A program made the position numbers and the translations under genes. This document shows positions 22,446-58,351 of a DNA stretch of 64,000 bases, piece after piece. Numbering within the stretch: position 1 is the stretch's first letter; each line of letters opens with the position of its first letter. The notes under the pieces were generated by a model. It did no database searches, was not told the origin of the DNA, and saw only the letters and a program-made list of their open reading frames with translations. Source of the stretch: Patescibacteria group bacterium (GTDB taxonomy: Bacteria > Patescibacteriota > Patescibacteriia > UM-FILTER-42-10); contig JBAYKW010000001.1 of assembly GCA_041664365.1 (NCBI GenBank), positions 71,168-135,167 of the forward strand, written 5' to 3'.

Positions 22446-22601
22446 CTATAATGTGCTGTTGTTGGATATATTGGATGCCTCGCGAAGGAATTCATCCTGT
22501 TCTGTCGGCGTCATGCCCTTGAAGTTCTGCCAGATGATTCGGGTGACAATGCCGACTAGAAACAATACTACGATAATCGCTCCAACTGTTAAGATGTTCA
22601 T
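22446..22601 (-). CDS. Small membrane protein (51 aa), not in the supplied ORF track
   Basis: Translation is MNILTVGAIIVVLFLVGIVTRIIWQNFKGMTPTEQDEFLREASNISNNSTL. Strong RBS AAGAGGAGG lies 5 nt upstream of the ATG (plus-strand complement at 22599-22601). Confidence 0.4.
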   Translation of the reverse strand: MNILTVGAIIVVLFLVGIVTRIIWQNFKGMTPTEQDEFLREASNISNNSTL

Positions 22602-22681
22602 CACAACCTCCTCTTAAGTCCGGAGGATAGAACACTATTCTAATGCTGATTCATCTTTTGTATTTTGTCAAACTGAGATAC

Positions 22682-22708
22682 AAAAAAACTGACATATATT
22701 TAGGTCAG
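22682..22708 (-). terminator. Intrinsic terminator on the minus strand between the lipoprotein gene and the small ORF
   Basis: On the minus strand: CTGAC-CTAAATATAT-GTCAG followed by TTTTTTTG. Confidence 0.4.
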
Positions 22709-22794
22709 AGTTATTAAGGGATTGGGTGGAGGGAGTTCGTAACGGCGTGTTGCAAACTCCCTCCTCGAAAAAATAGATTGTGCGAAGGTGCGAA

Positions 22795-23373
22795 TTACCG
22801 GATTATGTACCAGGGATCGAATTCTAGCAGGCCATAGACGGTCTGCTTAGAGTCCTCGATCAACGGCCCCCTGTAATGCGGGCCGTACGTCTGCCCCCAA
22901 GTTACCTCCACGGTAACCAGGTGCATACCCGGTGCGAGGTTAGTGAACCGCGCGTTGTCCAGGCCGACTAACCATGGGTTGTCGGTCCGTATCCGGAAGT
23001 AGAAGTAGCCGTCGCGACCCTGCTCGGCAACGATGGGGCCGAAATCGTCGACCCAGACCTCGACGAGCATCACCTTGGAAAGAAACTCGTCGTGCTTCCC
23101 GACCTGAACCCTCATCAAGCTCTCGGTGTACCGCAGCTTGAAAGGTTTCTTCGGCTTTTCCGGCTTGGAGTAGCCGATCTCGCTGAACATCACGTGCCCG
23201 TTCTCGTCGGTGTAGCGCAACGCCATCAACTTGAGCTCCTTGGAGCCGAAGTTGGTTTCAGTGTGGATGTTGTACACGCCTTCGAAGTTTCTCCACATAT
23301 GAGTGGAACAACCCGAGAGCGCGAACGTGGCCGCAAGGACCACCAGAGTGGAAATGAACGTGCGCTTCTTCAT
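22795..23373 (-). CDS. Putative lipoprotein (high-GC gene, unknown function)
   Basis: The real start is taken as MKKRTFISTLVVLAATFALSGC (lipobox LSGC), with RBS AAAGGAG 7 nt upstream. The track ORF extends to 23484 through the leader. GC is about 57% against a window average near 40%. Confidence 0.6.
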   Translation of the reverse strand: MKKRTFISTLVVLAATFALSGCSTHMWRNFEGVYNIHTETNFGSKELKLMALRYTDENGHVMFSEIGYSKPEKPKKPFKLRYTESLMRVQVGKHDEFLSKVMLVEVWVDDFGPIVAEQGRDGYFYFRIRTDNPWLVGLDNARFTNLAPGMHLVTVEVTWGQTYGPHYRGPLIEDSKQTVYGLLEFDPWYIIR

Positions 23374-23392
23374 GGCGCTCTCCTTTGGGTTG

Positions 23393-23412
23393 ATCATCCG
23401 CTTTCGGATGAT
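23393..23412. promoter_or_regulatory. Palindromic repeat copy 1 in the lipoprotein 5' leader (ATCATCCG-CTTT-CGGATGAT)
   Basis: An 8-bp perfect inverted repeat with a 4-nt spacer, lying between the predicted -10 and the RBS. Confidence 0.4.
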
Positions 23413-23451
23413 GTGTGATCGCCGAATCTCGAGAATCCTGAGAGTCTGGAT

Positions 23452-23469
23452 ATCCGCTTTCGGATGATT
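23452..23469. promoter_or_regulatory. Palindromic repeat copy 2 (ATCCG-CTTT-CGGATGATT), 57 bp from copy 1
   Basis: Shares the 17-nt direct-repeat core ATCCGCTTTCGGATGAT with copy 1. Confidence 0.4.
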
Positions 23470-23501
23470 GAGTTGCTGATTCACCCATTGTGAAACATTA
23501 G

Positions 23502-23530
23502 AGTATATACCTAAAATTGGTTTTTGTCAA
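23502..23530 (-). promoter_or_regulatory. Sigma70-type promoter for the lipoprotein gene
   Basis: On the minus strand: TTGACA (complement of 23525-23530), 17-nt spacer, TATACT (complement of 23502-23507). Confidence 0.45.
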
Positions 23531-23580
23531 GGCCATTAGAGAAAATCCTCTAACGGGATCAAGCCAGAATGGATGAATTG

Positions 23581-24137: not shown

Positions 24138-26918
24138 ATGGATTTTGATATTCAGACAATTTTTTCCAATCCAATAATACTTGGCGCGATCATATTTATA
24201 TCCGCCATCTTTATTATTGTTATTCTGCTCAAGATTGTCCGATTATGGTTGAAGAGAGGTCATTATCTCCCCGCAGGATTCCACAATGACACGTTACTGG
24301 TAATGGTTCCTAAAGAATTTGCCAGGGAAGATGATGAACGAAGAACAATTCCGGAATTAATTCTGCAGTTGGAACCGCTCTATACCAACCTTGGCGGATT
24401 GAAACCGCAACGTGGTTTGAATGCTTTTCTGTTCGGTCGGCATGACAATATTGCTTTTGAAATAATAAAAGATAAAGAGGAACGCATATCGTTTTACGTA
24501 ACTGTGCCACACTATTTAAAAAATTTCACAGAACAGCAAATCCATTCGGCATATCCTTCGGCAACTGTTGAAAAAGTGGAGGATTATAATATATTCATGG
24601 CACAGGGTGAAACTGTTGGCGCGTATTTGGTTCTGAAAAAACCATATATTTTCCCGATTAATACTTACAAAAAATTAGAAGTAGACCCGCTAAACGCAAT
24701 TACAAATTCATTATCAAAGTTGAACGAAGGAGAAGGAGCAGCGATACAAATATTGGCGCGCTCAGCTAATGCAGCCTGGCATGCCTGGCCGGCGAAGGTT
24801 GCATCGGAAATGCAACAGGGAAAAAAGCTGAAGGAAGCAATGAATTCATCGGCAGGCAGTTCCAAAGGTTTTGTCGGCAGTATTTTTAAATCAATATTTA
24901 CATCTTCAAAAGCTAAGGAAGATGATTTGCTTGATAAACCAAAACCGCATCAACTATCTCCAATGGACGAGGAAATAATTAAATCACTGGGGGAAAAGAC
25001 CTCCAAAGCCGGTTTTGACGTAAATATCAGGATTGCGGTTTCCTGTAAAGAAAAAGAGAACGCGGAAAGGCAATTAAGAAATATTGTGAATTCATTTTCT
25101 CAGTTTTCCGGATACGAGTATGGAAACGGATTTTCAACTATTTTGGTAGGTGGCAAACGTCGCATTTTTCATGATTTATTTTTCCGTAATTTTAACGAAC
25201 GCAGGTCGGTTCTGCTCACCAAAAACAGGTTCTTCCAGGATTTCATATTCCGTAATTTCAGCGATCGGAATTCTTATGTACTGAATACTGAGGAAATGAA
25301 CAGCATCTATCATTTTCCAATCAAGCTGTCGGAGACACCAAATATCCGCTGGCTCATGGCCAAAAAAGCGGCTCCGCCAAGTAATCTGCCAGATGAAGGA
25401 ATTATTTTGGGTGAGACTGATTATCGCGGACAAAAATCATTGATCCGAATAAAAGACCAGGATCGGCAAAGACATGTCTACATCATAGGACAAACCGGAT
25501 CGGGTAAGTCATATACCATGGCCAATATGGCGGTCCAGGATATCCAAAGAGGAGAGGGCTGTTGTTTGATTGACCCGCACGGCGGATTGATCGATGAATA
25601 CGTATTGCCGAACATACCGAAAGAGCGCGCGGAGGACGTGATTTATTTTGATCCATCAGATATGGAGAGGCCGATGGGTCTGAATCTTTTGGAATACGAT
25701 AAAAAATACCCTGAACAGAAGACTTTTGTAATCAATGAAATGATCAATATCTTTGATAAGCTGTACAACCTTTCCCAGACTGGCGGTCCGATGTTTGAAC
25801 AGTATATGCGTAATGCAATGCTCCTGGTGATGGATGATCCGAACGATACGGCTACACTCCTCGAAATTCCAAAAGTAATGGCGGATAAACAGTACCGCAC
25901 GGAAAAACTTGCCAAGGCGACTAACATTGTTGTTAAAAGATTTTGGGAGGAAGAAGCGGAAAAAGCCGGCGGTGAAGCGTCGCTTGCCAATATGGTTCCC
26001 TACATCACCAGTAAATTGAGCACTTTCATTTCAAACGACTATATGCGTCCGATTATCGCTCAGAAAGAAAGCGGATTCAATTTTCGGAAAGTAATGGATG
26101 AGCGAAAAATATTGCTGATCAATCTTTCTAAAGGAAGAATCGGCGATCTGAACGCGAAGCTACTGGGTTTGGTGATGGTGGGAAAAATACTGATGGCATC
26201 ATTAAGCCGTGTTGATATTCCGGAAGAGGAAAGAAAACCGTTTTACCTGTATATTGATGAGTTTCAAAATTATGTTACGGACAGTATTGCTGTCATATTA
26301 TCAGAAGCCAGAAAATACAAATTGTGTCTGACTATGGCTCACCAATATTTAGGACAATTAGTAGAAAATAACGACACTACAATCAAGGATGCGGTATTTG
26401 GAAACGTCGGCACGATTGCCGCATACCGGGTGGGTGTGGAGGATGCGGAACTCTTTGCCAAGCAGTTTGAGCCGGTATTTAACGAATATGATGTAATGAA
26501 TGTAGATAAATATGGGTTTAATCTTAAGCTATTAATCGACAATACACATGCCCGACCTTTTAATGTTAAAGGAAGAACCCTGCCTAAAGGCAATCCGCAA
26601 ATGGTGCAGGCCATCAAAGAGCTATCCAGGCTGAAATACGGAAAGGACCGCAATATTATTGAATCGGAAATTGCACTGCGCACGGCAATTAAAAAACCTC
26701 TGCCTCTAAATCCTGCTTTCTCCAGACGCGCATCAATCAGCGCTTTCCCAGTAAAACCGCTGGCAACTGACCCAGTGTCCGGAAACAAACAACCAGAGGC
26801 TACGGTTCAAACTGCACCTCTGCAGAATCCAATACAGAATACTGTTGTGTCCAATCCTGTTTCAAAACCGCCATCATCTGTGCCGTCTCCTGATATAAAT
26901 ACAAACATTAAGCCATAG
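24138..26918 (+). CDS. Membrane-anchored P-loop ATPase of the VirD4/TraG/TrwB-FtsK-HerA superfamily (type IV coupling protein-like) with a ~440-aa N-terminal domain of unknown function
   Basis: N-terminal TM helix (residues about 13-33). Walker A GQTGSGKS followed by the CLIDPHGGL motif, as in TrwB/VirD4. Walker B YLYIDEFQNY. Motif EARKYKLCLTMAHQYLGQL resembles the EGRKxG...ATQ motif of FtsK/HerA/T4CP. Low-complexity Pro/Ser/Asn C-terminal tail. Confidence 0.7.
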   Translation: MDFDIQTIFSNPIILGAIIFISAIFIIVILLKIVRLWLKRGHYLPAGFHNDTLLVMVPKEFAREDDERRTIPELILQLEPLYTNLGGLKPQRGLNAFLFGRHDNIAFEIIKDKEERISFYVTVPHYLKNFTEQQIHSAYPSATVEKVEDYNIFMAQGETVGAYLVLKKPYIFPINTYKKLEVDPLNAITNSLSKLNEGEGAAIQILARSANAAWHAWPAKVASEMQQGKKLKEAMNSSAGSSKGFVGSIFKSIFTSSKAKEDDLLDKPKPHQLSPMDEEIIKSLGEKTSKAGFDVNIRIAVSCKEKENAERQLRNIVNSFSQFSGYEYGNGFSTILVGGKRRIFHDLFFRNFNERRSVLLTKNRFFQDFIFRNFSDRNSYVLNTEEMNSIYHFPIKLSETPNIRWLMAKKAAPPSNLPDEGIILGETDYRGQKSLIRIKDQDRQRHVYIIGQTGSGKSYTMANMAVQDIQRGEGCCLIDPHGGLIDEYVLPNIPKERAEDVIYFDPSDMERPMGLNLLEYDKKYPEQKTFVINEMINIFDKLYNLSQTGGPMFEQYMRNAMLLVMDDPNDTATLLEIPKVMADKQYRTEKLAKATNIVVKRFWEEEAEKAGGEASLANMVPYITSKLSTFISNDYMRPIIAQKESGFNFRKVMDERKILLINLSKGRIGDLNAKLLGLVMVGKILMASLSRVDIPEEERKPFYLYIDEFQNYVTDSIAVILSEARKYKLCLTMAHQYLGQLVENNDTTIKDAVFGNVGTIAAYRVGVEDAELFAKQFEPVFNEYDVMNVDKYGFNLKLLIDNTHARPFNVKGRTLPKGNPQMVQAIKELSRLKYGKDRNIIESEIALRTAIKKPLPLNPAFSRRASISAFPVKPLATDPVSGNKQPEATVQTAPLQNPIQNTVVSNPVSKPPSSVPSPDINTNIKP

Positions 26919-30144: not shown

Positions 30145-30286
30145 ATAAGAATATTACTGTCACGCGGTAATTGGGGGATTATTTTTTTGAAAAAATCATT
30201 GGGGAGTAGCTCCGTTCATTCCACAAACGGAATGCACGGACGAGCAAGCGGTAATTATTTACATACTTGCTTTAACAATACATCAT

Positions 30287-30340
30287 TGGGGAGTAGCCAA
30301 GTGGTAAGGCAACGGGTTCTGGTCCCGTCACCGGGGGTTC
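30287..30340 (+). pseudogene. tRNA-Gln 5' fragment (positions 1-54, lacking the 3' half)
   Basis: 53/54 nt identical to 30667-30720. It is followed by unrelated GC-rich hairpins, not by the T-loop 3' half or the acceptor 3' strand. Confidence 0.6.
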
Positions 30341-30392
30341 TGCGCCCGAGGCGCACTCGCCTCCGGCGAGGAATCCTAAAATCTAAAACACA

Positions 30393-30662
30393 ATGTATTC
30401 AACCTATGTAATAAAAAGTATACATTTCCAAAGTAGGTACGTTGGCAGTACAGATAATGTTGAAAAAAGAGTAGAAGAACATAATAACGGCAAGTGTAGA
30501 TATACTAAGGGACGATCACCGTGGGTATTGATTTATAAAGAAGATTTTAATAGCAGATCTGAGGCAATGAAAAGAGAAAAGTTTTTGAAATCCGGTAAAG
30601 GTAGAAAATTGCTTGATGAAAAACTGAAAAAAATAGCAGATATCGAAAACAAAAATATTTAA
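30393..30662 (+). CDS. GIY-YIG (URI-domain) nuclease family small protein
   Basis: 89 aa. YVIKS (GIY), YVGST (YIG), RVEEHNNG and W/E/N motifs, as in COG2827/UPF0213 proteins. Confidence 0.8.
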   Translation: MYSTYVIKSIHFQSRYVGSTDNVEKRVEEHNNGKCRYTKGRSPWVLIYKEDFNSRSEAMKREKFLKSGKGRKLLDEKLKKIADIENKNI

Positions 30663-30666
30663 ACGA

Positions 30667-30740
30667 TGGGGAGTAGCCAAGCGGTAAGGCAACGGGTTCT
30701 GGTCCCGTCACCGGGGGTTCGAATCCCTCCTCCCCAGCCA
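30667..30740 (+). tRNA. tRNA-Gln (anticodon CTG)
   Basis: Manual cloverleaf fold. Acceptor TGGGGAG/CTCCCCA. D-arm GCC-AAGCGGTAA-GGC. Anticodon stem ACGGG/CCCGT with loop TTCTGGT. T-arm GGGGG-TTCGAAT-CCCTC. Discriminator G and encoded CCA. Confidence 0.85.
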
Positions 30741-30759
30741 AAAGGATTTTAGAAAGAAT

Positions 30760-30790
30760 CAACGTGAATAGAGCACGTTGTTTTTTTATT
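30760..30790 (+). terminator. Intrinsic terminator downstream of tRNA-Gln
   Basis: CAACGTG-AATAGAG-CACGTTG followed by TTTTTTTATT. Confidence 0.6.
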
Positions 30791-30897
30791 AGTGTGGATT
30801 CGAACGGGCAGAAGCGAAACAATCCGGAGCGAAGTGAAGGAGCAGTAGAGCGTCGACAAATGCGAGCCTGCGTAGCATTTGGCGCTGCCCAGGACGA

Positions 30898-30917
30898 GAA
30901 TCCCTCCTCCCCAACCA
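30898..30917 (+). repeat. Direct repeat of the tRNA-Gln 3' end (att-like)
   Basis: GAATCCCTCCTCCCCAACCA matches tRNA 30721-30740 (GAATCCCTCCTCCCCAGCCA) at 19/20 positions. It lies inside the high-GC island. Confidence 0.5.
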
Positions 30918-30990
30918 CGGGTCATCAGACCCTTCACCTGTCACAACCAAGCAAGCTTGGTTGTTTTAGGTTGCGGGTCTGTGCCCCTTT

Positions 30991-31040: not shown

Positions 31041-31183
31041 CTGTCTCGGCGAAGATGAGCTCGGCTAGTCAAGCCAATGCCTTGCGCGCTCCTGTTGCGC
31101 TCAGGATAAATAATGAATAAAGATGTTTGTTTATAAATGGGATTTGAACGGATGTGCTAAGCAAGGACGTTCTGGCTATTATT

Positions 31184-31212
31184 GACATGCCAACCTACAT
31201 AATGTAAGTTGC
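31184..31212 (+). promoter_or_regulatory. Sigma70-type promoter of the Cys-rich gene
   Basis: TTGACA, 17-nt spacer, TAAGTT. Followed by RBS AAAGGGAGG 8 nt before the ATG. Confidence 0.45.
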
Positions 31213-31253
31213 ACACTGCGTAGCTCATCTTCAGTCTGAAAGGGAGGAAAAGC

Positions 31254-31763
31254 ATGAGCTTCAGTGACTTGATATTGCGGATGTACTGTCTTAGTCCATT
31301 CCGCTTCACGGCAACCAAGTGCGGTCATCGCACAAAGCGTACCGGAAAGTTGTCCGCGTTCGGACTCACTGTGATCTGCAGGAGCCCCATGAACACTGAC
31401 GGTTCGGTGGATTACTGTCATGACTGCCTTGGCAGTATGACCATCCAATGCGTGTGGTGCGGTGAACCGATTCTTGTCGGTGATCCGATTACGCTGTACA
31501 CGCCTGCGATTGCACTGTTTGCGCCGGTAGATGAATGGTGTATTCCCAAACATGCGGTCATCTACCGCAAAGAGCATCCTGTTCAACTCGTCGGTTGCCT
31601 CAGAATGAGTTGCGCCGATTCCAGCGCGGATCGAGCAGGGTTCTGGCTTCCGGGTGAAGACGGTAAAGGCCGTGTCCTGCGGGTACAAACTGCACTTGAA
31701 GCCATCCTTAACGCACCTGTATCGTCAATCATGCTGGTGCGCGACACGCACGACTTCGCTTGA
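31254..31763 (+). CDS. Cysteine-rich hypothetical protein (high-GC island cargo)
   Basis: 169 aa with 11 Cys, including CHDC...CVWC. Strong SD. About 56% GC. The antisense ORF 31179-31688 is judged spurious. Confidence 0.5.
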   Translation: MSFSDLILRMYCLSPFRFTATKCGHRTKRTGKLSAFGLTVICRSPMNTDGSVDYCHDCLGSMTIQCVWCGEPILVGDPITLYTPAIALFAPVDEWCIPKHAVIYRKEHPVQLVGCLRMSCADSSADRAGFWLPGEDGKGRVLRVQTALEAILNAPVSSIMLVRDTHDFA

Positions 31764-32836: not shown

Positions 32837-33879
32837 CCAAAAAAAACCGAAAAGTAAGCGTTGCTTTTTTTGAGGTTGAGCAGTGGGAAAAAGAATATTT
32901 AGAAAAAAGATTAAAAGGATTTGAACTAATTTTTTTTGGTAAAACAGCGGACAAGGAAAGTCTGAACAGTATTCAGAATGTCAGCATCTTGTCTCCTTTT
33001 ATCTATTCTAAAATAAGCAAGGATATTCTATTAGCCCTACCTAACCTGAAATTAGTGGCGACCCGCTCTACCGGATTTGATCACATTGATCTGGTGTCGG
33101 CGCGCAAATTAAATATCAAAGTGGCGAATGTCCCGACGTACGGAGCGAATACGGTTGCGGAGCATACCTTCGCCTTAATCCTTTCGTTGAGCAGGAAAAT
33201 CCATCAGGCTTATGAGCGGACATCACGGGGAAATTTCAGCCTGGAGGGATTGCGCGGTTTTGACCTTAGAGATAAAACGATCGGTGTGGTCGGCGGGGGA
33301 AATATCGGACAGCATGTTGTGCGGATCGCGCAGGGGTTCAACATGAAAGTAATCGTATATGATGTTCACCGCGACCGGAAATTAGCAAAGAAAATGGGTT
33401 TTGAGTATGTGACGCTTAACCGGCTGATCAGTACATCAAATATTATTACCCTCCACGCGCCATATAACAAAAAAACCCATCACATGATCAATAGGCAGAA
33501 TATTAAGCTGGTAAAAGACGGGGCAATGATTATCAATACTGCCCGTGGAGGCCTGATTGATACTACGGCATTAATAGACGGGTTGCGCGACGGCAAGCTA
33601 GCCGGTATTGGATTAGATGTTTTGGAAGAAGAAAAATACATTCTGAAAGAAGAAGCGGAACTATTATCCCCGCACTTCATCAGTAAAAATCAGCAGAATA
33701 TAAAAGAAAATCTGGAGACAGTCGTGGAAGGACATATGCTACTCATGTCGGATAAAGTTGTAGTAACTCCGCACAATGCATTTAACAGCAAGGAGGCACT
33801 GGAAAGAATATTGGATACGACCATTGAAAATATTACTTCCTTCAGTAAGAAAATAAGGATGAAAAACTTAGTTAAATAG
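32833..33879 (+). CDS. D-isomer-specific 2-hydroxyacid dehydrogenase (NAD-binding)
   Basis: GVVGGGNIGQHV Rossmann motif. Catalytic R/E/H positions of the D-2-HDH family. Confidence 0.85.
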   Translation: MTKKNRKVSVAFFEVEQWEKEYLEKRLKGFELIFFGKTADKESLNSIQNVSILSPFIYSKISKDILLALPNLKLVATRSTGFDHIDLVSARKLNIKVANVPTYGANTVAEHTFALILSLSRKIHQAYERTSRGNFSLEGLRGFDLRDKTIGVVGGGNIGQHVVRIAQGFNMKVIVYDVHRDRKLAKKMGFEYVTLNRLISTSNIITLHAPYNKKTHHMINRQNIKLVKDGAMIINTARGGLIDTTALIDGLRDGKLAGIGLDVLEEEKYILKEEAELLSPHFISKNQQNIKENLETVVEGHMLLMSDKVVVTPHNAFNSKEALERILDTTIENITSFSKKIRMKNLVK

Positions 33880-33892
33880 CTTGAGCCAGTTC

Positions 33893-33923
33893 AAAAAAAC
33901 CGTCTGATTTAGACGGTTTTTTG
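33893..33923 (+). terminator. Intrinsic terminator
   Basis: A7-CCGTCT-GATTT-AGACGG-T6. Confidence 0.6.
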
Positions 33924-33954
33924 TTATTGATATTCTTGATATACTTATTATGTA

Positions 33955-34752
33955 ATGAAAAGAAAAGCACTAATTCTTGGCGCTACGGGATATTTAGGGT
34001 CGGAAGTTGTAAATAACGCTCCCGAAAATCTTGTTTTGTATTTTGGAAGTAGAGATGTGAGAATCGCAGGACATAATCAAGTAATGGTCGACCTGCTTGA
34101 TTATGATACCGTAAAAAAGGCGATTGCTGATATTGCTCCTGACATTATTATTCATTCGGCAAGATTAGGCGAATTTGATGATGATCCAGTAAAGGCCAAA
34201 GAGGTAACCGCGAACTTAGTCTCATCCATTAAATCAGTTAGCGCGAGATTGATTTATATGTCTTCAGACGCGGTGTTTGACGGAACAAAGGGAGAATATA
34301 AAGAAGACAGCAGGGGTAACCCCGTGACCGATTATGGCAGGGCAAAATTAGCAGCAGAAAATGTAATCAAATCTGAGATGGATAATTATACAATCATTCG
34401 TGCCGGGTATATTTATGGCGTTGGGGCGAAGGGGATGGACCGAAGATGTGAAAAAATACTCGCAGAAACGAAGGATGGAAAAAAAGTAAAAAGATTTAAC
34501 GACGTGTTTAGAACCCCGATCCATGTTACAAAATTGGCTAAGTTTATTTGGAAACTGGTGGGGTCGGATTTTAAAGGGATTATTCATGTTGGTGAAGAGA
34601 AGCAGAGCGTCTACCAGTTTAGCCAAAAGATTTTAAAAGATGCTGGTGCAGACAGTAGCCTGGTTGAATCTGATTCTGCAAGAGATAAGGGATTAAATAT
34701 CGCAATAGACACGTCTCTAAACACAAAGCTTTATCATACTTTAATAAAATAA
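33955..34752 (+). CDS. RmlD-like NAD(P)-dependent reductase (dTDP-4-dehydrorhamnose reductase family)
   Basis: GATGYLGS Rossmann motif. RmlD substrate-domain pattern SSDAVFDG...Y.E.D...P...YG..K..AE. Confidence 0.7.
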   Translation: MKRKALILGATGYLGSEVVNNAPENLVLYFGSRDVRIAGHNQVMVDLLDYDTVKKAIADIAPDIIIHSARLGEFDDDPVKAKEVTANLVSSIKSVSARLIYMSSDAVFDGTKGEYKEDSRGNPVTDYGRAKLAAENVIKSEMDNYTIIRAGYIYGVGAKGMDRRCEKILAETKDGKKVKRFNDVFRTPIHVTKLAKFIWKLVGSDFKGIIHVGEEKQSVYQFSQKILKDAGADSSLVESDSARDKGLNIAIDTSLNTKLYHTLIK

Positions 34753-34786
34753 AAACAGTCCCAGAGAGCGAAGGAACTGTTTTTTA
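34753..34786 (+). terminator. Intrinsic terminator
   Basis: AAACAGT-N16-ACTGTTT followed by TTTAG. Confidence 0.55.
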
Positions 34787-34863
34787 GTATTTATCTGTCA
34801 GTGGCGTGTTCTATGAGTATGTATAATTTGTTACATAACAATTTATATTGTGTTGTTTTGGTT

Positions 34864-34942
34864 AAATAAAAAAATGGACCGTTGAACTGAAGGCAGTTCT
34901 CGGGTCCCTTATCAGGAATGTGCGATAGCCGTATTAGACGGC
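34864..34942 (-). repeat. 3' module copy A: Rho-independent terminator plus stop-proximal hairpin, repeated after both island genes
   Basis: On the minus strand: GCCGTCTAATACGGC hairpin, then GGACC-CGA-GAACTG-CCTTC-CAGTTC-AAC-GGTCC, then ATTTTTTTATTT. Confidence 0.6.
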
Positions 34943-34946
34943 GCAG

Positions 34947-35270
34947 TTAGGGGTTATCTGGTGGGACGAGGATCATGTTGAGCGACATACCGAGCTTGCC
35001 GAGTTTCTCGATGAGATCGATCAATGTCCTTCTACCAAAGTTCCGGACCGACATGAGGTCTTCTTCGGTCGTGAGGACAAGATCGAGGATGGTGCGTATG
35101 TGGAGATCACGGCAGGCGTGCTTCATCCGTACAGAGGCATCTAATTCTGCCACTTTCATGCACACCACTTGGATGGGGATAACGACTGTGTTGCCATCCT
35201 GTGCGCGGAGTGGAATACACAGTTCACCCGATTGTCTCACGATCATGCCAACGGCTAGTAGCTTACTCAT
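34947..35270 (-). CDS. Free-standing RNA polymerase alpha-subunit C-terminal domain (alphaCTD) protein
   Basis: Start taken at MSKLLAVGM, with SD AGGAGGAGGTGA 4 nt upstream. The track start MEHRL lacks an RBS. The C-terminal 65 aa align in pattern with E. coli RpoA 250-315 (ELDASVRMKHACRDLHIRTILDLVLTTEEDLMSVRNFGRRTLIDLIEKLGKLGMSL vs [55 protein letters not shown]). About 60% GC. Confidence 0.65.
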   Translation of the reverse strand: MSKLLAVGMIVRQSGELCIPLRAQDGNTVVIPIQVVCMKVAELDASVRMKHACRDLHIRTILDLVLTTEEDLMSVRNFGRRTLIDLIEKLGKLGMSLNMILVPPDNP

Positions 35271-35361
35271 CTGTTCACCTCCTCCTATGGAGCAGTCTAA
35301 AGAGACACAAAGGCGATGCTCCATCGTAATTTAATGTTTCTAAATTGTCAAGCCCCGTTTG

Positions 35362-35440
35362 AAATAAAAAAATGGACCTTTGAACAGAAGCTGTTCGCAG
35401 GTCCTTCACGGGAATGAGCGGGTGGCCGTACTAGACGGCC
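35362..35440 (-). repeat. 3' module copy B (after pepT)
   Basis: About 80% identical to copy A. The inner stem is GAACAG/CTGTTC where A has GAACTG/CAGTTC, a compensatory double substitution preserving pairing. The pepT stop codon sits in the GGCCGTACTAGACGGCC hairpin. Confidence 0.6.
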
Positions 35441-36696
35441 TGGTACTCGGTGTACAGAGCGATGATGTGCTTCAGGATCAAGGCAGTACACTCGAGCTCA
35501 TCGACCACCAGGAATTCCTCCTTGCCATGGAGGTTGCGGGAGCCGTAGCCGATGTTGGGTGTGGCACAGGTGGGGTAGATCATGTTGAAGCCGGCGCCGT
35601 CCGTCCCGCCGCGGACGTTGTGATCGGAGGTGGTGACACCGTGGATAGCGTGTGCCGCGTAGATCGGCTGGAGCAGGTCGCGGTTGGCTTCGTTGATCGA
35701 GCGGTTGTTGATGCACACCGTCTCGTCCGACACGATCTTGAAGGTACAACCTTCGGCCCTGGCGCACTGCTGTGCGACCTGGACTGCGCGTCGCATCATC
35801 ACGTCCGTTTCCTTCTCGTCGAAGGAGCGGGGGACGATGAGCAGGCTGGCCTTGCCGGCGTCCATCTTAGCGTCCACGATGTAGAAGAACGGTGCCCTGC
35901 GGTCAGCGATGCCGGCGTACGGGTTGAGGAAGAGCTGTTCCATCTGCATGGCGAATGCCATCGCCGCGTAATGAGCGCGGTGGAGCTTGTGCGGGTAGAC
36001 GCCGGGGTGGGCGTCAGCGCCGTAGAACTCCATCTTCACCATCCGGCAGGCGAAACAGCCCAGGTCGATCTCGCCGACCGGACCTCCGTCCACGGTGAGC
36101 AGAACATCCCACGCACCGGCGATCTCCGGCGGGATGTTCTTCCCCTTGATGCGACCGATCTCCTCGTCGGTGCAGATCCACAAGTCGAGCGGTCCGTGCG
36201 AAAGTTGCTTGAGGAGCATGTTGCCAACTGCGTCAACGATGACGGCTAGACCACCCTTGTCGTCTGCACCGAGCAGACTGTCGCCGGAGCCGGTGATGAT
36301 GGTCTTGCCCTCCAGTCCCGTGAGGTCTTCGGCGGGGATCACGACATCACCCTTCGGCAGCACGATGCTCCCGCCCCGATAAGGGGGATGGATGATCGGA
36401 GTGACGGCGCCGGAAACGCCGGGGTAGGTGTCGACGTGTGCGGAAAGGCACAGGTACGGCTTGTCTTCGAGTCCTTTGGTCGCCGGGAAGCGAACGATGA
36501 GTTCACCTTCCGGCAGGTCCACGAACTGGCCATCGGCAGTGCCCAGCTCGAGCAGGCCGTCTTTCAAGAGGTGCATGACTTCAAGCTGTCCGGGGCTTGT
36601 CGGGAACTCCGTTGACTCGGCGTTCGAAGCTGAGTCCACGCCGACATAGCGCAGGAACAGTTCCGTGACCGGAGCGAGTGCGGTCGGTTGGTTCAT
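35431..36696 (-). CDS. pepT: Peptidase T (tripeptide aminopeptidase, M20B)
   Basis: Start at MNQPTAL with SD GGGAGG; the track start is TTG at 36711. Motif ELFLRYVGVDS as in PepT N-termini. HxD, GADDKGG and EEIG metal ligands. About 62% GC. Confidence 0.85.
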   Translation of the reverse strand: MNQPTALAPVTELFLRYVGVDSASNAESTEFPTSPGQLEVMHLLKDGLLELGTADGQFVDLPEGELIVRFPATKGLEDKPYLCLSAHVDTYPGVSGAVTPIIHPPYRGGSIVLPKGDVVIPAEDLTGLEGKTIITGSGDSLLGADDKGGLAVIVDAVGNMLLKQLSHGPLDLWICTDEEIGRIKGKNIPPEIAGAWDVLLTVDGGPVGEIDLGCFACRMVKMEFYGADAHPGVYPHKLHRAHYAAMAFAMQMEQLFLNPYAGIADRRAPFFYIVDAKMDAGKASLLIVPRSFDEKETDVMMRRAVQVAQQCARAEGCTFKIVSDETVCINNRSINEANRDLLQPIYAAHAIHGVTTSDHNVRGGTDGAGFNMIYPTCATPNIGYGSRNLHGKEEFLVVDELECTALILKHIIALYTEYQAV

Positions 36697-36858
36697 GCCG
36701 AAACCTCCCAAGAATCGGGTAATTGTCTACTGTACCCGGAAATTGGGCACAGTTTTGGTTTTTACCATATTATTTTGACTCTGGCAAGCTAGGGTAGTCA
36801 CATAGTGACTGCACTGACAAGTCGCCAGAAGCAGCAATATTTGATACAATAATCCGGT

Positions 36859-37641
36859 ATGAATAAGGAAACAAAGATAATAATCAAAGCAGTAGAAGCC
36901 GGCGGGGAAGTATTAAGGAAATATTTTGGCCAGGAGCTTAAAGTTGTTCAAAAGACACTTCCGGCTGATGTATACACAAAAGCGGATATTGAGTCGGAAG
37001 CAGCGATTTTAAGTATTGTTACCAAAGAATTACCAGGCTATAATATCTTTTCCGAAGAAACGGGAGAGATCAGGAGAAATTCCGAATATACATTAATTAT
37101 TGATCCCTTGGACGGGTCAAATAACTTTGTTCTGGGGATTCCCAATTTTTCTGCATCAATAGCCCTTTTAAAAAATGATGAAATAATAGCGTCTGCAATT
37201 TATGATCCGATTCAGAAAAAAACCTATCACGCGGAAAAGGGAAACGGCGCATTCTGCAATAAGAAAAAAATTGAAGTAAATAAAATTTCTGAATGGGAAA
37301 AATCAACTGTTGTTTATATAACCCATTATACTGTGAACCGCAGACCGCATAAGCTAATTATTGACCGGATTGAGAATAAGAAAGTAAAAAGAGTTTTGCG
37401 CAACTGGTCACCCTCACTGGATTTTTGCATGCTCGCTTCAGGAAAAATTGAAATTCTGATTAATAATTACAGCGAGATTTATGATCATATTGCCGGTAAA
37501 CTGATTGCCAGGGAAGCCGGGGCACGCATTACAGATTTTTCCGGAAAAGCTGAAAAAAATGACATGAATAGCATATTCATGGCCACTAACGGCACCAAAC
37601 TCCATGGCGAAACTGTAAAATTATCACTGACAAATAAATAA
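36859..37641 (+). CDS. Inositol monophosphatase / FBPase family protein
   Basis: IMPase motifs FSEETGE and IIDPLDGSNNF, and WSPSLD. Confidence 0.8.
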   Translation: MNKETKIIIKAVEAGGEVLRKYFGQELKVVQKTLPADVYTKADIESEAAILSIVTKELPGYNIFSEETGEIRRNSEYTLIIDPLDGSNNFVLGIPNFSASIALLKNDEIIASAIYDPIQKKTYHAEKGNGAFCNKKKIEVNKISEWEKSTVVYITHYTVNRRPHKLIIDRIENKKVKRVLRNWSPSLDFCMLASGKIEILINNYSEIYDHIAGKLIAREAGARITDFSGKAEKNDMNSIFMATNGTKLHGETVKLSLTNK

Positions 37642-45035: not shown

Positions 45036-45671
45036 ATGAAAAATTTTAACAGAAACGGAAAATCATTTGACCGGAAAAACGGTCCCAGTTTTGACCGCAG
45101 AGAATCAATGAGCGGCGGATACAACAGAGGGGGTGATTCGGATCATCACGTAATGCATCAAGCGGTTTGCTCGGAATGCGGTCAGAGCTGCGAAGTACCG
45201 TTTAAACCGACCGGTAATAAGCCGGTTTACTGCAGTAACTGCTTTAAAGGCAAGGACAAATCAAGTTCTAGCCGATCTTTTGGCAGGGATTTTGGCAAAC
45301 CGAATTTTTATGAAAAGAAAATGTTTAAAGCCACCTGTTCCCAGTGCGGACAGAGTTGCGAAGTACCATTCAGACCTACAGGGGAGAAGCCGGTTCTATG
45401 TTCCAGCTGTTTTGGCAAAGATCCGAGAAGCACAGATCGAAAGCCAAGTGATGTGAATAGTGGAAAGTTCGATGGTCAGTTGAAGACTATTAACGAGAAG
45501 CTGGATAAAATATTAAGACAATTAGCACAAACTGAAACAAATGTTTCCCCAGTAAAAGAAAAAACTGTTATCAAACCAGAAGTGAAGAAGAAGGAAACAG
45601 CAAAAGCTGCGGTAAAAAAGAAGGTGGTTAAGACGGTTAAAGTAAAGCCAAAAGCAAAGAAGAAAAAATAA
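45036..45671 (+). CDS. Tandem zinc-ribbon protein with a lysine-rich C-terminal tail
   Basis: Two copies of C..CGQSCEVPF.PTG.KPV.CS.CF (CxxC-N17-CxxC). Arg/Gly-rich N-terminus. KKKVVKTVKVKPKAKKKK tail. Confidence 0.6.
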   Translation: MKNFNRNGKSFDRKNGPSFDRRESMSGGYNRGGDSDHHVMHQAVCSECGQSCEVPFKPTGNKPVYCSNCFKGKDKSSSSRSFGRDFGKPNFYEKKMFKATCSQCGQSCEVPFRPTGEKPVLCSSCFGKDPRSTDRKPSDVNSGKFDGQLKTINEKLDKILRQLAQTETNVSPVKEKTVIKPEVKKKETAKAAVKKKVVKTVKVKPKAKKKK

Positions 45672-47943: not shown

Positions 47944-48047
47944 TGTCTATATAAAATAAGTGAAATAACCCAGCTTTAGCCATTATATCGCATATTGATT
48001 AAAAAAAACATCAAGCGGAGGCCTGATGTGATGAACGTTATGAGCTA

Positions 48048-48506
48048 TCATCCGGAAGGTCCGGACAGGGATATTGTGTACAGTCTCTGGCCGTACTCGA
48101 CCGGTTGACCGGTTTCGGCATGAATCTGCCTGATTGTACCCTCAAATTGGGAAACGACCGGGTTTTTCAGCCCGTGTATTTCAATATAACCCACGGTTTC
48201 GCCCTGCGAAACAAAACTGCCCTCGATGAGTGGCGGATTTTCCTCCAGATCGGCCGCGGCCAAAAACCATCCCACAGACGGCGATTCGATAGTACACAGC
48301 TGTTCCTGGACCGCCAACTTTTCCGCAGTCTGCGGCTGGCTGGCGGAACTGTCCGAAGGTGACATTCGAACACGGATCTTGGAAAATCCCCTCATGTTCC
48401 TTACTTCCAGCTCGGCAATAGTTGGATGCTCTTGGAGCAGGCTGACTATTTGCCGGACTTTTTTCAAGTCCATATCTGCTCCTTTCTGGTGTTGAGCCGG
48501 TGGCAA
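48048..48506 (-). CDS. BCCP-like biotinyl/lipoyl-domain protein lacking the canonical AMKM biotinylation motif
   Basis: N-terminus DLKKVRQIVSLLQEHPTIAELEV resembles the AccB N-terminus. The C-terminal hybrid-barrel pattern ...GETVGYIEIHGLKNP..EGTI...GQPVEYGQRLYTI aligns with the BCCP ...CIVEAMKMMN..SGTV...GQPVEFDEPL pattern, but with IHGL in place of AMKM. The GC is elevated (about 52%). Confidence 0.5.
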   Translation of the reverse strand: MPPAQHQKGADMDLKKVRQIVSLLQEHPTIAELEVRNMRGFSKIRVRMSPSDSSASQPQTAEKLAVQEQLCTIESPSVGWFLAAADLEENPPLIEGSFVSQGETVGYIEIHGLKNPVVSQFEGTIRQIHAETGQPVEYGQRLYTISLSGPSG

Positions 48507-48599
48507 TGATCAAACGGGCTTTTTAGGCCATATAGAGTTTAGGCGTAAATTTTGGACATGTCAATAAAGTGTATTGATTGTAAAATAAAAGAAGTTATT

Positions 48600-56093: not shown

Positions 56094-57044
56094 ATGAACA
56101 GTGCGGTCCAAAAAACGGTAACAAAAATAGCATCTTTAGAAATACAGGGTGCGACACAGATAACCAGAGTAATTTTGGATGCTTTGCAGTCCGAAAGCAA
56201 TCAGTTGCTGAAAAAAACTAAGACTCAATTTCTCTCTGAGATAAGAAAAAGCGGCAAAGCGCTGGCAGAAGCAAGACCAACCGAACCGCTATCACGTAAT
56301 TCAGTCCAATTCGTATTACACTATTTAGAGAACAATAAAGACGGTTTGTCTGTCCCTGAACTGGTGAAACTACTAAAAAAAGCCTGCCATCTCTTTTTAG
56401 TTCTTCTGAAATATCATGATCAGAAAATTGCTGAGGCTGGTGCAAGACTGATTAAGCCGAATATGAAAGTGTTTACGCACTGTCATTCCTCGACTGTGGA
56501 ACATATTATTGCGGAGGCCAGCAAGCACTCTAAGATGCCGCGCGTTTTTTGCACGGAAACACGTCCGCTGTTTCAGGGCAGAACAACAGCTAAAAATCTT
56601 TTGAAACAAAAAATTGATGTTACAATGGTGGCTGATTCCGCAGCCGCGTTTCTGATCAGTAGAACTAGTGGTCGTGAAGTGATGGTGGACATTGCTTTTC
56701 TGGGTGCTGACTCTGTTACATCCGGCGGTTCGGTAATCAATAAAGTTGGCAGCTTTGGTATCGCACTGGTTGCTAATCATGAAAAAATCCCGGTTTATGT
56801 TGCTGCGTCTCTTTTAAAAACCGATCCGGAAACATTTATCAGTAAATATATCGGTATTGAACTGCGCGACCGAAAAGAAATATGGCCGAATGGTCCCAAG
56901 GGATTGAAGATAATCAATTTTGCTTTTGATCGTATCCCGTTCAAATTTATCAAGGGGATAATTTGTGAATTTGGCGTAATTAAGCCGCGCGATGTCGCGT
57001 ATCTGGTGCAAAAACATTACCCATGGATTTTTAAAAACTTTTAA
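56094..57044 (+). CDS. eIF-2B alpha/beta/delta-family isomerase, probable ribose-1,5-bisphosphate isomerase
   Basis: Family motifs VFTHCHSSTV, VFCTETRP and LGADSV. Sits between guaA and RuBisCO. Confidence 0.75.
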   Translation: MNSAVQKTVTKIASLEIQGATQITRVILDALQSESNQLLKKTKTQFLSEIRKSGKALAEARPTEPLSRNSVQFVLHYLENNKDGLSVPELVKLLKKACHLFLVLLKYHDQKIAEAGARLIKPNMKVFTHCHSSTVEHIIAEASKHSKMPRVFCTETRPLFQGRTTAKNLLKQKIDVTMVADSAAAFLISRTSGREVMVDIAFLGADSVTSGGSVINKVGSFGIALVANHEKIPVYVAASLLKTDPETFISKYIGIELRDRKEIWPNGPKGLKIINFAFDRIPFKFIKGIICEFGVIKPRDVAYLVQKHYPWIFKNF

Positions 57045-57045
57045 A

Positions 57046-58278
57046 ATGAATAAATTTTATAAAAAATTTGTTGATCAAGATTATAAACCAAAAAAAACGG
57101 AATTAGTCGCTTCTTTTTATATGGATACAAATATTGATTTTTCAGATGCGGCAGGAGGAGTAGCGGCAGAATCTTCTATCGGAACCTGGACTGATCTTGC
57201 CACATTATCCAAAGCAACATTTACAAAGCTTGGTGCTAAAGCATTTGATATTGATAAAAAAGCGCACACCTTCAAAGTCGCTTATCCAATTGCCTTGTTT
57301 GAAAAGGGAAGCATCCCGCAATTTTTATCCGGTGTTGCCGGAAATGTTTTTAGCATGAAGATAATAAAAAATCTGCGCCTCTCAGATGTTGATTTTCCGG
57401 AAAGTTATGTAAATAGTTTCCAGGGGCCACGCTTCGGTATTAAGGGTATTAGACGCATAACGGGAATTTATGACAGACCAATTCTAGGGTCGATTTTAAA
57501 GCCGAAGTTGGGTCTATCAGCACTGCAGCACGCCACTCTTTCTTATCAAGTATTCATCGGTGGAATTGATTTGGTAAAAGATGATGAAAATCTGACCGAC
57601 CTTTCCTTCAGCCGTTTTGACCAGCGGGTGCGTCTAACATTAAAAATGAGGGATAAAGCAGAAAAGGAAACAGGCAGTAAGAAGCTTTGTGTTTTTAATA
57701 TAACGGCACAGCCGGACGAAATGATCAGGAGAGCACAACTGGTTAAAAGTTTGGGTGGTGAAGTAGTGATGATAGATATGGTATCTGTCGGCCTCGACAA
57801 TGTGCAAATGTTGCGCAAACGGGATCTGGGATTAATAATCCATGGCCATCGCGCGGGACACTCAATGTTTACAAAAAACAGTAAGCACGGAATGAGTATG
57901 CTGGTGTTATCAAAACTGGCGCGTCTTGCCGGAATCGACCAATTGCATACCGGCACGGTAGTCGGAAAAATGGAAGGCGGTAAGGATAATGTGGTGGAAA
58001 TCGATGATTTTCTGCGCAGTAAATGGTTCGCAATCAAGACAGTATTCCCAATCGCATCGGGCGGTCTGTATCCTAATCTGATACCGTCGTTATACAAAAT
58101 ATTCGGCAAGGATGTAATTATGAACTTTGGCGGTGGAATTCATGGACACCCCGACGGAACATTCGCTGGTGCAAAAGCTGTAAAGCAGGCTTTGGACGCA
58201 ACAATTAACGGGGTGTCACTTGAAGAATATGCAAAGGATAACATCGAATTAGCTGTCGCGATTAGGTATTGGAAATAA
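57046..58278 (+). CDS. rbcL: RuBisCO large subunit, form II/III
   Basis: Start at MNKFYKK (57046); the track ORF begins upstream, inside the previous gene. Motifs KPKLGLS, GGIDLVKDDENL (carbamylated Lys), IHGHRAGH and GGGIHGHPDG. Confidence 0.9.
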   Translation: MNKFYKKFVDQDYKPKKTELVASFYMDTNIDFSDAAGGVAAESSIGTWTDLATLSKATFTKLGAKAFDIDKKAHTFKVAYPIALFEKGSIPQFLSGVAGNVFSMKIIKNLRLSDVDFPESYVNSFQGPRFGIKGIRRITGIYDRPILGSILKPKLGLSALQHATLSYQVFIGGIDLVKDDENLTDLSFSRFDQRVRLTLKMRDKAEKETGSKKLCVFNITAQPDEMIRRAQLVKSLGGEVVMIDMVSVGLDNVQMLRKRDLGLIIHGHRAGHSMFTKNSKHGMSMLVLSKLARLAGIDQLHTGTVVGKMEGGKDNVVEIDDFLRSKWFAIKTVFPIASGGLYPNLIPSLYKIFGKDVIMNFGGGIHGHPDGTFAGAKAVKQALDATINGVSLEEYAKDNIELAVAIRYWK

Positions 58279-58351
58279 GTAATTCGTAAATGGTAATTGG
58301 TAATCACGAACTGCAAATTACTAAATTACCAATTACAAATAAAAATAAATC

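Follow-up and report, generated by a model that had tools for sequence, protein, structure and literature searches.

Two related elements of about 79 nt, encoded one behind the other on the minus strand, are described here from a 64,000-nucleotide stretch of genomic DNA (the window) that forms part of an ordinary small-genome chromosome of a Patescibacteria, or candidate phyla radiation (CPR), bacterium with a GC content of ~40%. One element (module B) follows a gene for a PepT-like M20 metallopeptidase, here called pepT, and the other (module A) follows a gene for a free-standing C-terminal domain of the RNA polymerase alpha subunit (alphaCTD). We conclude that the two modules are probably paralogous Rho-independent terminators behind two separately transcribed genes, the pepT unit being an old resident of the genome and the alphaCTD unit a lineage-specific addition. 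Module C, the orthologous module after the pepT gene of a related genome, serves for comparison. The features concerned, in coordinates of the window, are as follows.

35431-36696, minus strand: PepT-like M20 metallopeptidase gene, 421 aa, GC 0.62, GC at third codon positions (GC3) 0.81.
35362-35440, minus strand: 3′ module B, with hairpin 1 at 35424-35440, the putative terminator hairpin at 35374-35404 and a U7AU3 tract at 35362-35373.
34947-35270, minus strand: free-standing single-domain alphaCTD gene, 107 aa, GC 0.52, GC3 0.60.
34864-34942, minus strand: 3′ module A, with hairpin 1 at 34928-34942, the putative terminator hairpin at 34876-34907 and a U7AU3 tract at 34864-34875.

A first-pass annotation, made from the letters of this DNA, had reported two modules of about 79 nt, roughly 80% identical and each folding into a stop-proximal hairpin followed by nested outer and inner stems, and this description is borne out. 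Aligned over ~79 nt, A and B are 80-81% identical and lie 498 nt apart. Their local alignment score of 47 compares with 7.6 ± 1.4 for 2000 shuffles and with 15 for the highest-scoring unrelated tile of 100 nt from the window. The 17 nt that had been called identical in both copies, AAATAAAAAAATGGACC, are indeed so and occur nowhere else in the window. The likeness ends at the module edges, and no significant similarity is seen in the 74 nt downstream or the 68 nt upstream. Module B overlaps the pepT stop codon, and module A starts 4 nt past that of the alphaCTD gene.

Both copies fold into hairpin 1 (GCCGU/ACGGC, 4-6 bp), a spacer of ~20 nt carrying CATTC (CAUUC in the RNA), and a larger hairpin in which an outer GGACC/GGUCC stem encloses a 6-bp inner stem and is followed by U7AU3. 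This larger hairpin is bulged and comprises 11-12 bp (5-6 bp outer, 6-7 bp inner), with predicted energies of −13.8, −16.5 and −16.3 kcal/mol in A, B and C respectively, and U7AU3 follows it in each case. The energy of hairpin 1 ranges from −3.5 to −10.6 kcal/mol among the copies, the latter value belonging to module B, where the pepT stop codon TAG (35431-35433) sits in the hairpin loop. Fold z-scores of the two modules are −3.1 and −5.3. The paired substitution that had been noted in the inner stem is real in the folded alignment, a compensatory swap of U-A for A-U between copies, and it is joined by a second paired change in which a C.C mismatch gives way to a U-A pair and lengthens the outer stem in copy B.

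The modules thus present a stable G+C-rich stem-loop followed by at least five U residues, close behind a stop codon and on the coding strand, which is the form of a Rho-independent terminator, and we infer that they end transcription of pepT and the alphaCTD gene. Rfam, applied to the whole window at gathering thresholds, returned a tRNA-Gln only, and relaxing the limit to E ≤ 10 in the module region brought up nothing relevant. This lack of a family match counts against a rival in which the module is a functional element of the 3′ untranslated region (UTR), binding a protein or small RNA or stabilizing the transcript, that co-regulates pepT and the alphaCTD gene with termination as part of its role. 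The architecture does offer this idea some encouragement, as all three copies, the non-coding A included, have kept hairpin 1 (CCGUCUA.NACGG) and the CAUUC spacer, the pepT stop codon is placed in the hairpin-1 loop, and a stop-proximal hairpin before the terminator is also present in other GC-rich units of the window. However, hairpin 1 is weak and variable, conservation among three copies may reflect shared ancestry alone, together with coding constraint in pepT, and distant pepT homologues have unrelated 3′ ends. We regard such a co-regulatory element as unlikely.

The closest homologue of pepT, 75% identical in amino acid sequence, resides on a 1.18-Mb contig of the related genome (locus L003) and is also present in four further assemblies of that relative from other samples (L003-L007 in all). 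The locus is syntenic: Inositol_P, EamA and ZIP genes lie on one side, and genes for a 2-hydroxyacid dehydrogenase, rubrerythrin, dnaX and a VirD4-like protein on the other. The relative's pepT has a GC content of 0.62 against 0.385 for its flanks, with the same promoter footprint, and module C follows it in L003-L007. Identities among the modules are 80% for A-B, 78% for A-C and 73% for B-C.

This third copy gives the stem changes a direction. In the three-way alignment A and C have U-A at the swapped inner-stem pair, where B has A-U, and they have a C.C mismatch at the base of the outer stem, where B has a U-A pair. Since A and C share the other state, both double changes are derived in B. 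A further stem pair reads G-U in C and A-U in the other two copies. The paired changes keep or improve pairing, as selection on a terminator stem produces, and we take them as modest evidence of such selection.

Immediately behind the pepT terminator the two genomes differ. The slot between it and the 2-hydroxyacid dehydrogenase gene (33955-35361 in the window, 11428-13421 in L003) holds the alphaCTD gene and an rmlD-like reductase gene in the window, and genes for an extracytoplasmic function (ECF) sigma factor and a 475-aa protein without a Pfam match in the relative. The occupant directly behind pepT is related to RNA polymerase in both. No significant similarity was found between the sequence downstream of A and that downstream of the module in L003, so the flanks do not show which copy is ancestral.

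Further copies were sought with a covariance model trained on the three modules and run on the window with filters off. The host DNA searched was ~74 kb (the window and 10 kb past its left end) out of at least 392 kb in the contig; of the relative's 1.18-Mb contig, 21 kb was searched. Five further loci with pepT homologues on low-GC, CPR-like contigs (L026, L027, L028, L030 and L031) were included. In all of this DNA the model found A, B and C only; a hit at 47991-48069, behind a gene for a protein resembling biotin carboxyl carrier protein (BCCP), scored 14 bits with E ~1 and is not significant. The exact pattern GGACC-N15-35-GGTCCATTTTTTTATTT was also scanned in collections of genome, metagenome and viral contigs, with 11, 7 and 0 matches respectively, all of them unrelated generic terminators as judged by their upstream sequence. 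These collections returned neither the host contig nor that of the relative, and the scans are accordingly silent on copies inside those two genomes. One Parcubacteria locus, L013, reached 25.8 bits with the covariance model and was rejected: its surroundings are not notably GC-rich, no related gene was identified among its listed, unannotated open reading frames (ORFs), and the score is probably owed largely to the 22-nt pattern by which it was selected. Nor does the layout of a duplicated terminator recur at the other pepT loci, as the small GC-rich gene after pepT in L031 has an unrelated terminator.

These results bear on the suggestion that the module is a dispersed intergenic repeat, of the type of repetitive extragenic palindromes (REP) and bacterial interspersed mosaic elements (BIME) or a terminator-carrying miniature inverted-repeat transposable element (MITE), that landed behind both genes. 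Such families are likewise short structured intergenic repeats at gene 3′ ends; the edges of the likeness match the structured element while the flanks are dissimilar, and about the same distance separates each pair of A, B and C, a pattern that a repeat family can show. Yet just two copies were found in 74 kb of host DNA, close together, and the orthologous copy stands alone in 21 kb of the relative; the exact-pattern scans of the three public collections gave no related copy, and no spread was detected. The ends (GCCGTC... and ...TTTATTT) bear neither terminal inverted repeats nor target-site duplications. The apparent last codons and stop of pepT that are recognizable in A point instead to a local origin from the pepT 3′ end. 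A dispersed repeat is in our view improbable.

The first-pass annotation had also compared the two units to integron gene cassettes. The two separately transcribed units and a shared terminator-type module remain from that proposal; the reading of the module as an attC site does not. What invites the comparison is an ORF followed by an imperfect palindrome, twice and in the same orientation, and a GTTGAAC heptamer in A that fits GTTRRRY (with its complement GTTCAAC fitting RYYYAAC). The heptamer is present in A, as had been reported, and in C, but B has TTTGAAC; it is self-complementary, single and buried in the terminator stem. A search of both strands of 34700-36900 for RYYYAAC...GTTRRRY pairs (R″/R′, the inverse core and core) spaced by 40-130 nt found none. 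In place of one long, bulged, imperfect palindrome there are two separate short hairpins and a U tract, and both genes have promoter-like sites of their own, unlike typical cassettes. The presence of intI had been proposed as a check, and gene calls and Pfam scans of the ~74 kb returned no tyrosine recombinase or Phage_integrase match. As pepT and its module are moreover syntenic and vertically inherited at a fixed site, and Rfam has no matching family, we consider integron cassettes, including those of the CALIN type, extremely improbable here.

Several points weigh against a plain history of duplicated terminators. The DNA searched for copies is a small part of both contigs, and others may be present elsewhere in the two genomes. 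Just one strictly compensatory pair is available among the three sequences. The generic terminator scan flagged neither module, its rule disallowing bulged stems. The repeat edges coincide exactly with the limits of the functional element, the base of hairpin 1 on one side and the last nucleotide of the U tract on the other, and this coincidence fits a discrete module as well as it fits an old segmental duplication with decayed neutral flanks. Finally, hairpin 1 and the CATTC spacer have been kept in the non-coding copy A, which hints at a function beyond termination.

Each of the two genes had been credited with its own promoter and Shine-Dalgarno sequence, and promoter-like sites and Shine-Dalgarno sequences can indeed be read upstream of both.

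36759-36787, minus strand: putative pepT promoter, with −35 TTGCCA at 36787-36782, −10 TAAAAA at 36764-36759 and a 17-nt spacer ending in TGG (extended −10).
36697-36758, minus strand: pepT 5′ leader, with Shine-Dalgarno GGGAGG at 36709-36704.
35323-35351, minus strand: putative alphaCTD promoter TTGACA-17-TACGAT, from a consensus scan (10/12 matches).
35271-35322, minus strand: alphaCTD leader, with hairpin ATGGAGCA...TGCTCCAT and Shine-Dalgarno AGGAGGAGG.

Promoter function is predicted for both sites from their sequence. The same consensus scan missed the pepT site, as it demands T at position 6 of the −10 element. Conservation singles this site out: the GCTTGCCAGA...TAATATGGTAAAAAC block is the best-conserved stretch of the pepT upstream intergenic region between the window and L003, so that TTGCCA-N14-TGG-TAAAAA is kept as a footprint in the relative, and the Shine-Dalgarno block GGGAGGTTT.GGC of the leader is conserved there as well. 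The homologue at L026, 45% identical, is preceded by TTGACA-N14-TGG-TAAAAA, the same promoter layout.

The pepT product matches Pfam PF01546 and aligns over its full length with the PepT structures 3IFE, 1VIX and 1FNO (E ~1e-45). Its motifs AHVDT, GADDKGG, DEEIG, DGGP and NLHGKEE align with counterparts in 3IFE. By analogy with M20 enzymes in general, these would be the metal-ligand and catalytic motifs (HxD, D, EE, D, H). The NCBIfam PepT model NF003976 scores 217 bits (E = 3e-64) against a cut-off of 255 bits, and the peptidase is best called PepT-like. The M20 dimerization domain PF07687 was not detected in it by Pfam.

Both genes had been put at about 60% GC, which is right for pepT (0.62) and too high for the alphaCTD gene (0.52); the genes flanking the pair have 0.37-0.39. 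The richness of pepT is uniform along the gene (0.60-0.68 per 120 nt), and the GC3 check that had been proposed gave the 0.81 listed above. The implied reading of this block as a foreign island does not hold for pepT. Most neighbouring genes are 69-92% identical in amino acid sequence between the window and the relative, with CbiM at 42%, a range that includes the 75% of pepT. Synonymous divergence (dS) of the neighbours runs from 1.2 to saturated, and the lower NG86 dS of pepT (0.73) is explained by strong codon bias, which depresses the estimate. Once each gene's own codon usage is corrected for, conserved residues of pepT show an excess synonymous-codon identity of 0.175, and those of the pooled neighbours one of 0.197. 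At the third positions of pepT the two senses of change are in balance, 38 differences running from A or T to G or C (W→S) and 29 the other way (S→W). The GC3 of pepT is 0.81 and 0.83 in two lineages whose synonymous sites are near saturation, and no amelioration is seen. Given a divergence like that of its neighbours and balanced differences, pepT is as old as its surroundings and no fresh import, and its GC3 of ~0.82 has the look of an equilibrium value, not of a relic yet to ameliorate.

Recent horizontal acquisition of the whole GC-rich block from a GC-rich donor, or an assembly chimera, might be thought of in view of the sharp 20-point jump in GC, which is confined to the coding sequences, of a codon usage typical of GC-rich organisms, and of the fact that the alphaCTD gene and a GC-rich lipoprotein gene (22795-23373) are both orphans. 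We judge it very improbable. The relative's pepT occupies the corresponding site and shares its promoter and terminator with that of the window, and the synonymous divergence and balance of substitutions just described do not fit a recent arrival. As for a chimera, the junctions recur in separate assemblies: Logan SRR6484324 matches 33693-36773 with 100% identity, and the arrangement of the relative is found in five assemblies. Recent transfer of the alphaCTD gene alone is plausible; this is the one gene of the pair that is lineage-specific.

Five more members of the PepT-like clade, 37-46% identical, are all GC-richer than their flanks.

L026: gene GC 0.606, flank GC 0.352.
L028: gene GC 0.648, flank GC 0.444.
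L027: gene GC 0.535, flank GC 0.456.
L030: gene GC 0.582, flank GC 0.446.
L031: gene GC 0.589, flank GC 0.446.

The clade thus exceeds the surrounding DNA by 8-25 GC points at every sampled locus, with GC3 values of 0.53-0.90 across at least six low-GC lineages (at least 0.71 except in L027). Promoter-like sites are present at all five further loci and an intrinsic terminator of unrelated sequence at four, L028 being without a clear U tract. The contigs of L030 and of L031/L032 end 180-240 nt upstream of the pepT homologue; assemblies may tend to break at compositional jumps.

Synonymous-site selection and GC-biased gene conversion are candidate causes of this persistent GC-richness, and a literature search on persistently GC-rich genes in CPR bacteria found nothing relevant. 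We tentatively raise the possibility, which we hold to be rather doubtful, that the GC-rich islands of this and related Patescibacteria genomes are a maintained class of monocistronic units, each with its own promoter, structured 3′ end and gene-specific GC-rich equilibrium, and not scars of transfer. The maintaining force would be selection on synonymous sites, for mRNA stability or condition-specific expression, or strongly GC-biased gene conversion, and the shared 3′ module would then be part of the expression design, co-opted by the alphaCTD gene.

The alphaCTD protein matches Pfam PF03118 over residues 38-91 (46.3 bits against a cut-off of 23.8). Its match to RpoA is limited to residues 35-98, corresponding to RpoA positions 248-310, to which RpoA CTD structures align. 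Identification of the 107-aa protein as RpoA itself was rejected, as it is without the N-terminal dimerization and assembly domain of that subunit. It has a unique 33-aa N-terminus, and the canonical SVRSxNCL and VRNLGRKSL read SVRMKHAC and VRNFGRRTL. No homologue above ~44% identity was found among 1.84 billion representatives, a search of 5.8 billion clusters returned only the protein itself, and the gene is absent from the syntenic site in L003; by these comparisons it appears to be lineage-specific. A phage tblastn search with the alphaCTD sequence gave just weak generic alphaCTD matches, plasmid blastn with the GC-rich island gave no match, and PADLOC matched no defence system.

The putative alphaCTD promoter begins 10 nt past the U tract of module B. 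This U/T tract, ATTTTTTTATTT (within 35346-35373, minus strand), falls at about −57 to −46 of the promoter. An A/T-rich UP element, to which alphaCTD domains naturally bind, would be expected at this position, although the match may be fortuitous. Speculatively, the alphaCTD protein might bind A/T-rich DNA or RNA polymerase partners, as a decoy or adaptor.

Our preferred reading, that of paralogous terminators, goes with the following probable history. The pepT unit, consisting of promoter, leader, GC-rich coding sequence and terminator, is old and vertically inherited, and the alphaCTD unit is a lineage-specific addition to the variable slot directly behind the pepT terminator. Hairpin 1 of module A holds GCCGTCTAA, a non-coding sequence, where pepT ends in GCC GTC TAG. 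Because this resembles the last codons and stop of pepT, A is most simply read as derived from the pepT 3′ end, most likely by local duplication; for example, a segment of terminator plus alphaCTD gene could have been duplicated in tandem and the distal gene copy then lost. A and B are as far apart as B and C, two copies from genomes between which neutral sites have reached saturation. A recent duplication is thus improbable, and both copies would then be under constraint.

Selection for efficient termination may have kept both modules. pepT and the alphaCTD gene run against their neighbours, and read-through would yield transcripts antisense to the rmlD-like and 2-hydroxyacid-dehydrogenase genes, which converge on them. 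In that case the paired stem changes would be the ordinary signature of selection for termination.

The window holds further GC-rich single-gene units, at 22446-23560 (−), 31170-31763 (+) and 48048-48560 (−). A TTGACA-type promoter and a strong Shine-Dalgarno sequence precede each gene, and every unit has a terminator of its own. The genes of these units are as follows.

22795-23373, minus strand: lipoprotein gene, GC3 0.78.
22446-22601, minus strand: gene for a 51-aa membrane protein.
31254-31763, plus strand: gene for a 169-aa protein, not homologous to the gene in the same slot of L003.
48048-48473, minus strand: gene for a BCCP-like biotinyl-domain protein.

An orthologue search with the lipoprotein returned only the lipoprotein itself. 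Its leader contains the hairpin ATCCGAAAGCGGAT twice, at 23452-23465 and 23396-23409. Taken together, the GC-rich genes of the window are a mixed population of at least one ancient resident and several lineage-specific genes.

The chromosome otherwise includes dnaE, ftsW and murG, the hrcA-grpE-dnaK-dnaJ cluster, cysS and dnaX, and genes for rubrerythrin, ZIP transporters, guaB and guaA. Genes for an e2b2/R15P isomerase, a form III-like RuBisCO and an AMP phosphorylase are consecutive at 56094-59854 (+), and this nucleotide-salvage module, typical of CPR bacteria, supports the assignment to Patescibacteria. The VirD4/TraG-like coupling protein of the syntenic block (926 aa; DUF8128, T4SS-DNA_transf and TrwB_AAD_bind) is encoded at 24138-26918 (+), in the same position as in the relative, with no other obvious conjugation genes nearby.

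The locus of tRNA-Gln(CTG) at 30190-30920 (+) is rearranged. The intact tRNA occupies 30667-30740; copies of its 5′ part lie at 30287-30340 (54 nt, 98% identical) and, for the 12 nt of its 5′ end, at 30200-30211, and its last 20 nt are repeated with one mismatch at 30897-30916. The 5′ and 3′ fragments sum to one whole tRNA split in the T-loop. Between the fragments is an ORF for an 89-aa GIY-YIG nuclease at 30393-30662 (PF01541, E = 7e-16), and in L003 the tRNA stands 55 nt from dnaX with no insertion. The locus looks like a mobile GIY-YIG element, or an intron or integration scar, in a tRNA gene. Elsewhere, a 76-nt direct repeat (72% identity, 168 nt apart) at 45152-45395 (+) lies inside a gene for a 211-aa zinc-finger protein (zf_Tbcl_2) and is probably an internal domain duplication.

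The modules offer a clean example of a terminator that has apparently been duplicated and retained, with the polarity of its compensatory changes resolved, and they remove a false lead, as genes of deviant GC content with palindromic repeats behind them can pass, in a CPR genome, for integron cassettes and are here, in all likelihood, served by ordinary terminators. Compositional outliers in small AT-rich genomes are usually assumed to be recent imports that will ameliorate, and the PepT-like gene contradicts this. If its case generalizes, GC-based calls of islands and transfers in Patescibacteria would need care, and some selective or recombinational force acting on synonymous sites would call for an explanation.

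Among known systems, peptidase T (MEROPS M20B) shares with the pepT product full-length homology and aligned metal-binding and catalytic motifs; the differences are the sub-cut-off NCBIfam score, the missing PF07687 match and membership of a divergent clade from CPR-like contigs that is consistently GC-richer than its host genomes. Proteins other than RpoA that carry the helix-hairpin-helix fold of alphaCTD (PF03118) without the alpha N-terminal domain are widespread, with 2-11 tandem alphaCTD repeats, tetratricopeptide repeats (TPR) plus alphaCTD, or sigma region 4 plus alphaCTD. As such proteins are common and diverse, a free-standing alphaCTD belongs to a known, if uncharacterized, kind; the present one differs in having a lone domain within only 107 aa, in its unique N-terminus and in the lack of any close relative. 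Phage morons resemble the units described here as single genes with their own sigma70-type promoter and terminator, of deviant composition, placed between neighbouring genes and opposed to them in direction. Unlike morons, these units lie outside any prophage with housekeeping flanks, and the pepT unit is ancient and syntenic rather than an accessory insertion.

The closest likeness of the modules themselves is to intrinsic terminators, with which they share a G+C-rich stem-loop and U tract, a stop-proximal position on the coding strand, compensatory stem changes and a likely part in the insulation of convergent neighbours. They depart from the typical form in their bulged stem, in the conserved small hairpin that overlaps the stop codon and in the CAUUC spacer, and the recognizable paralogy of two copies separated by 498 nt is uncommon for terminators.

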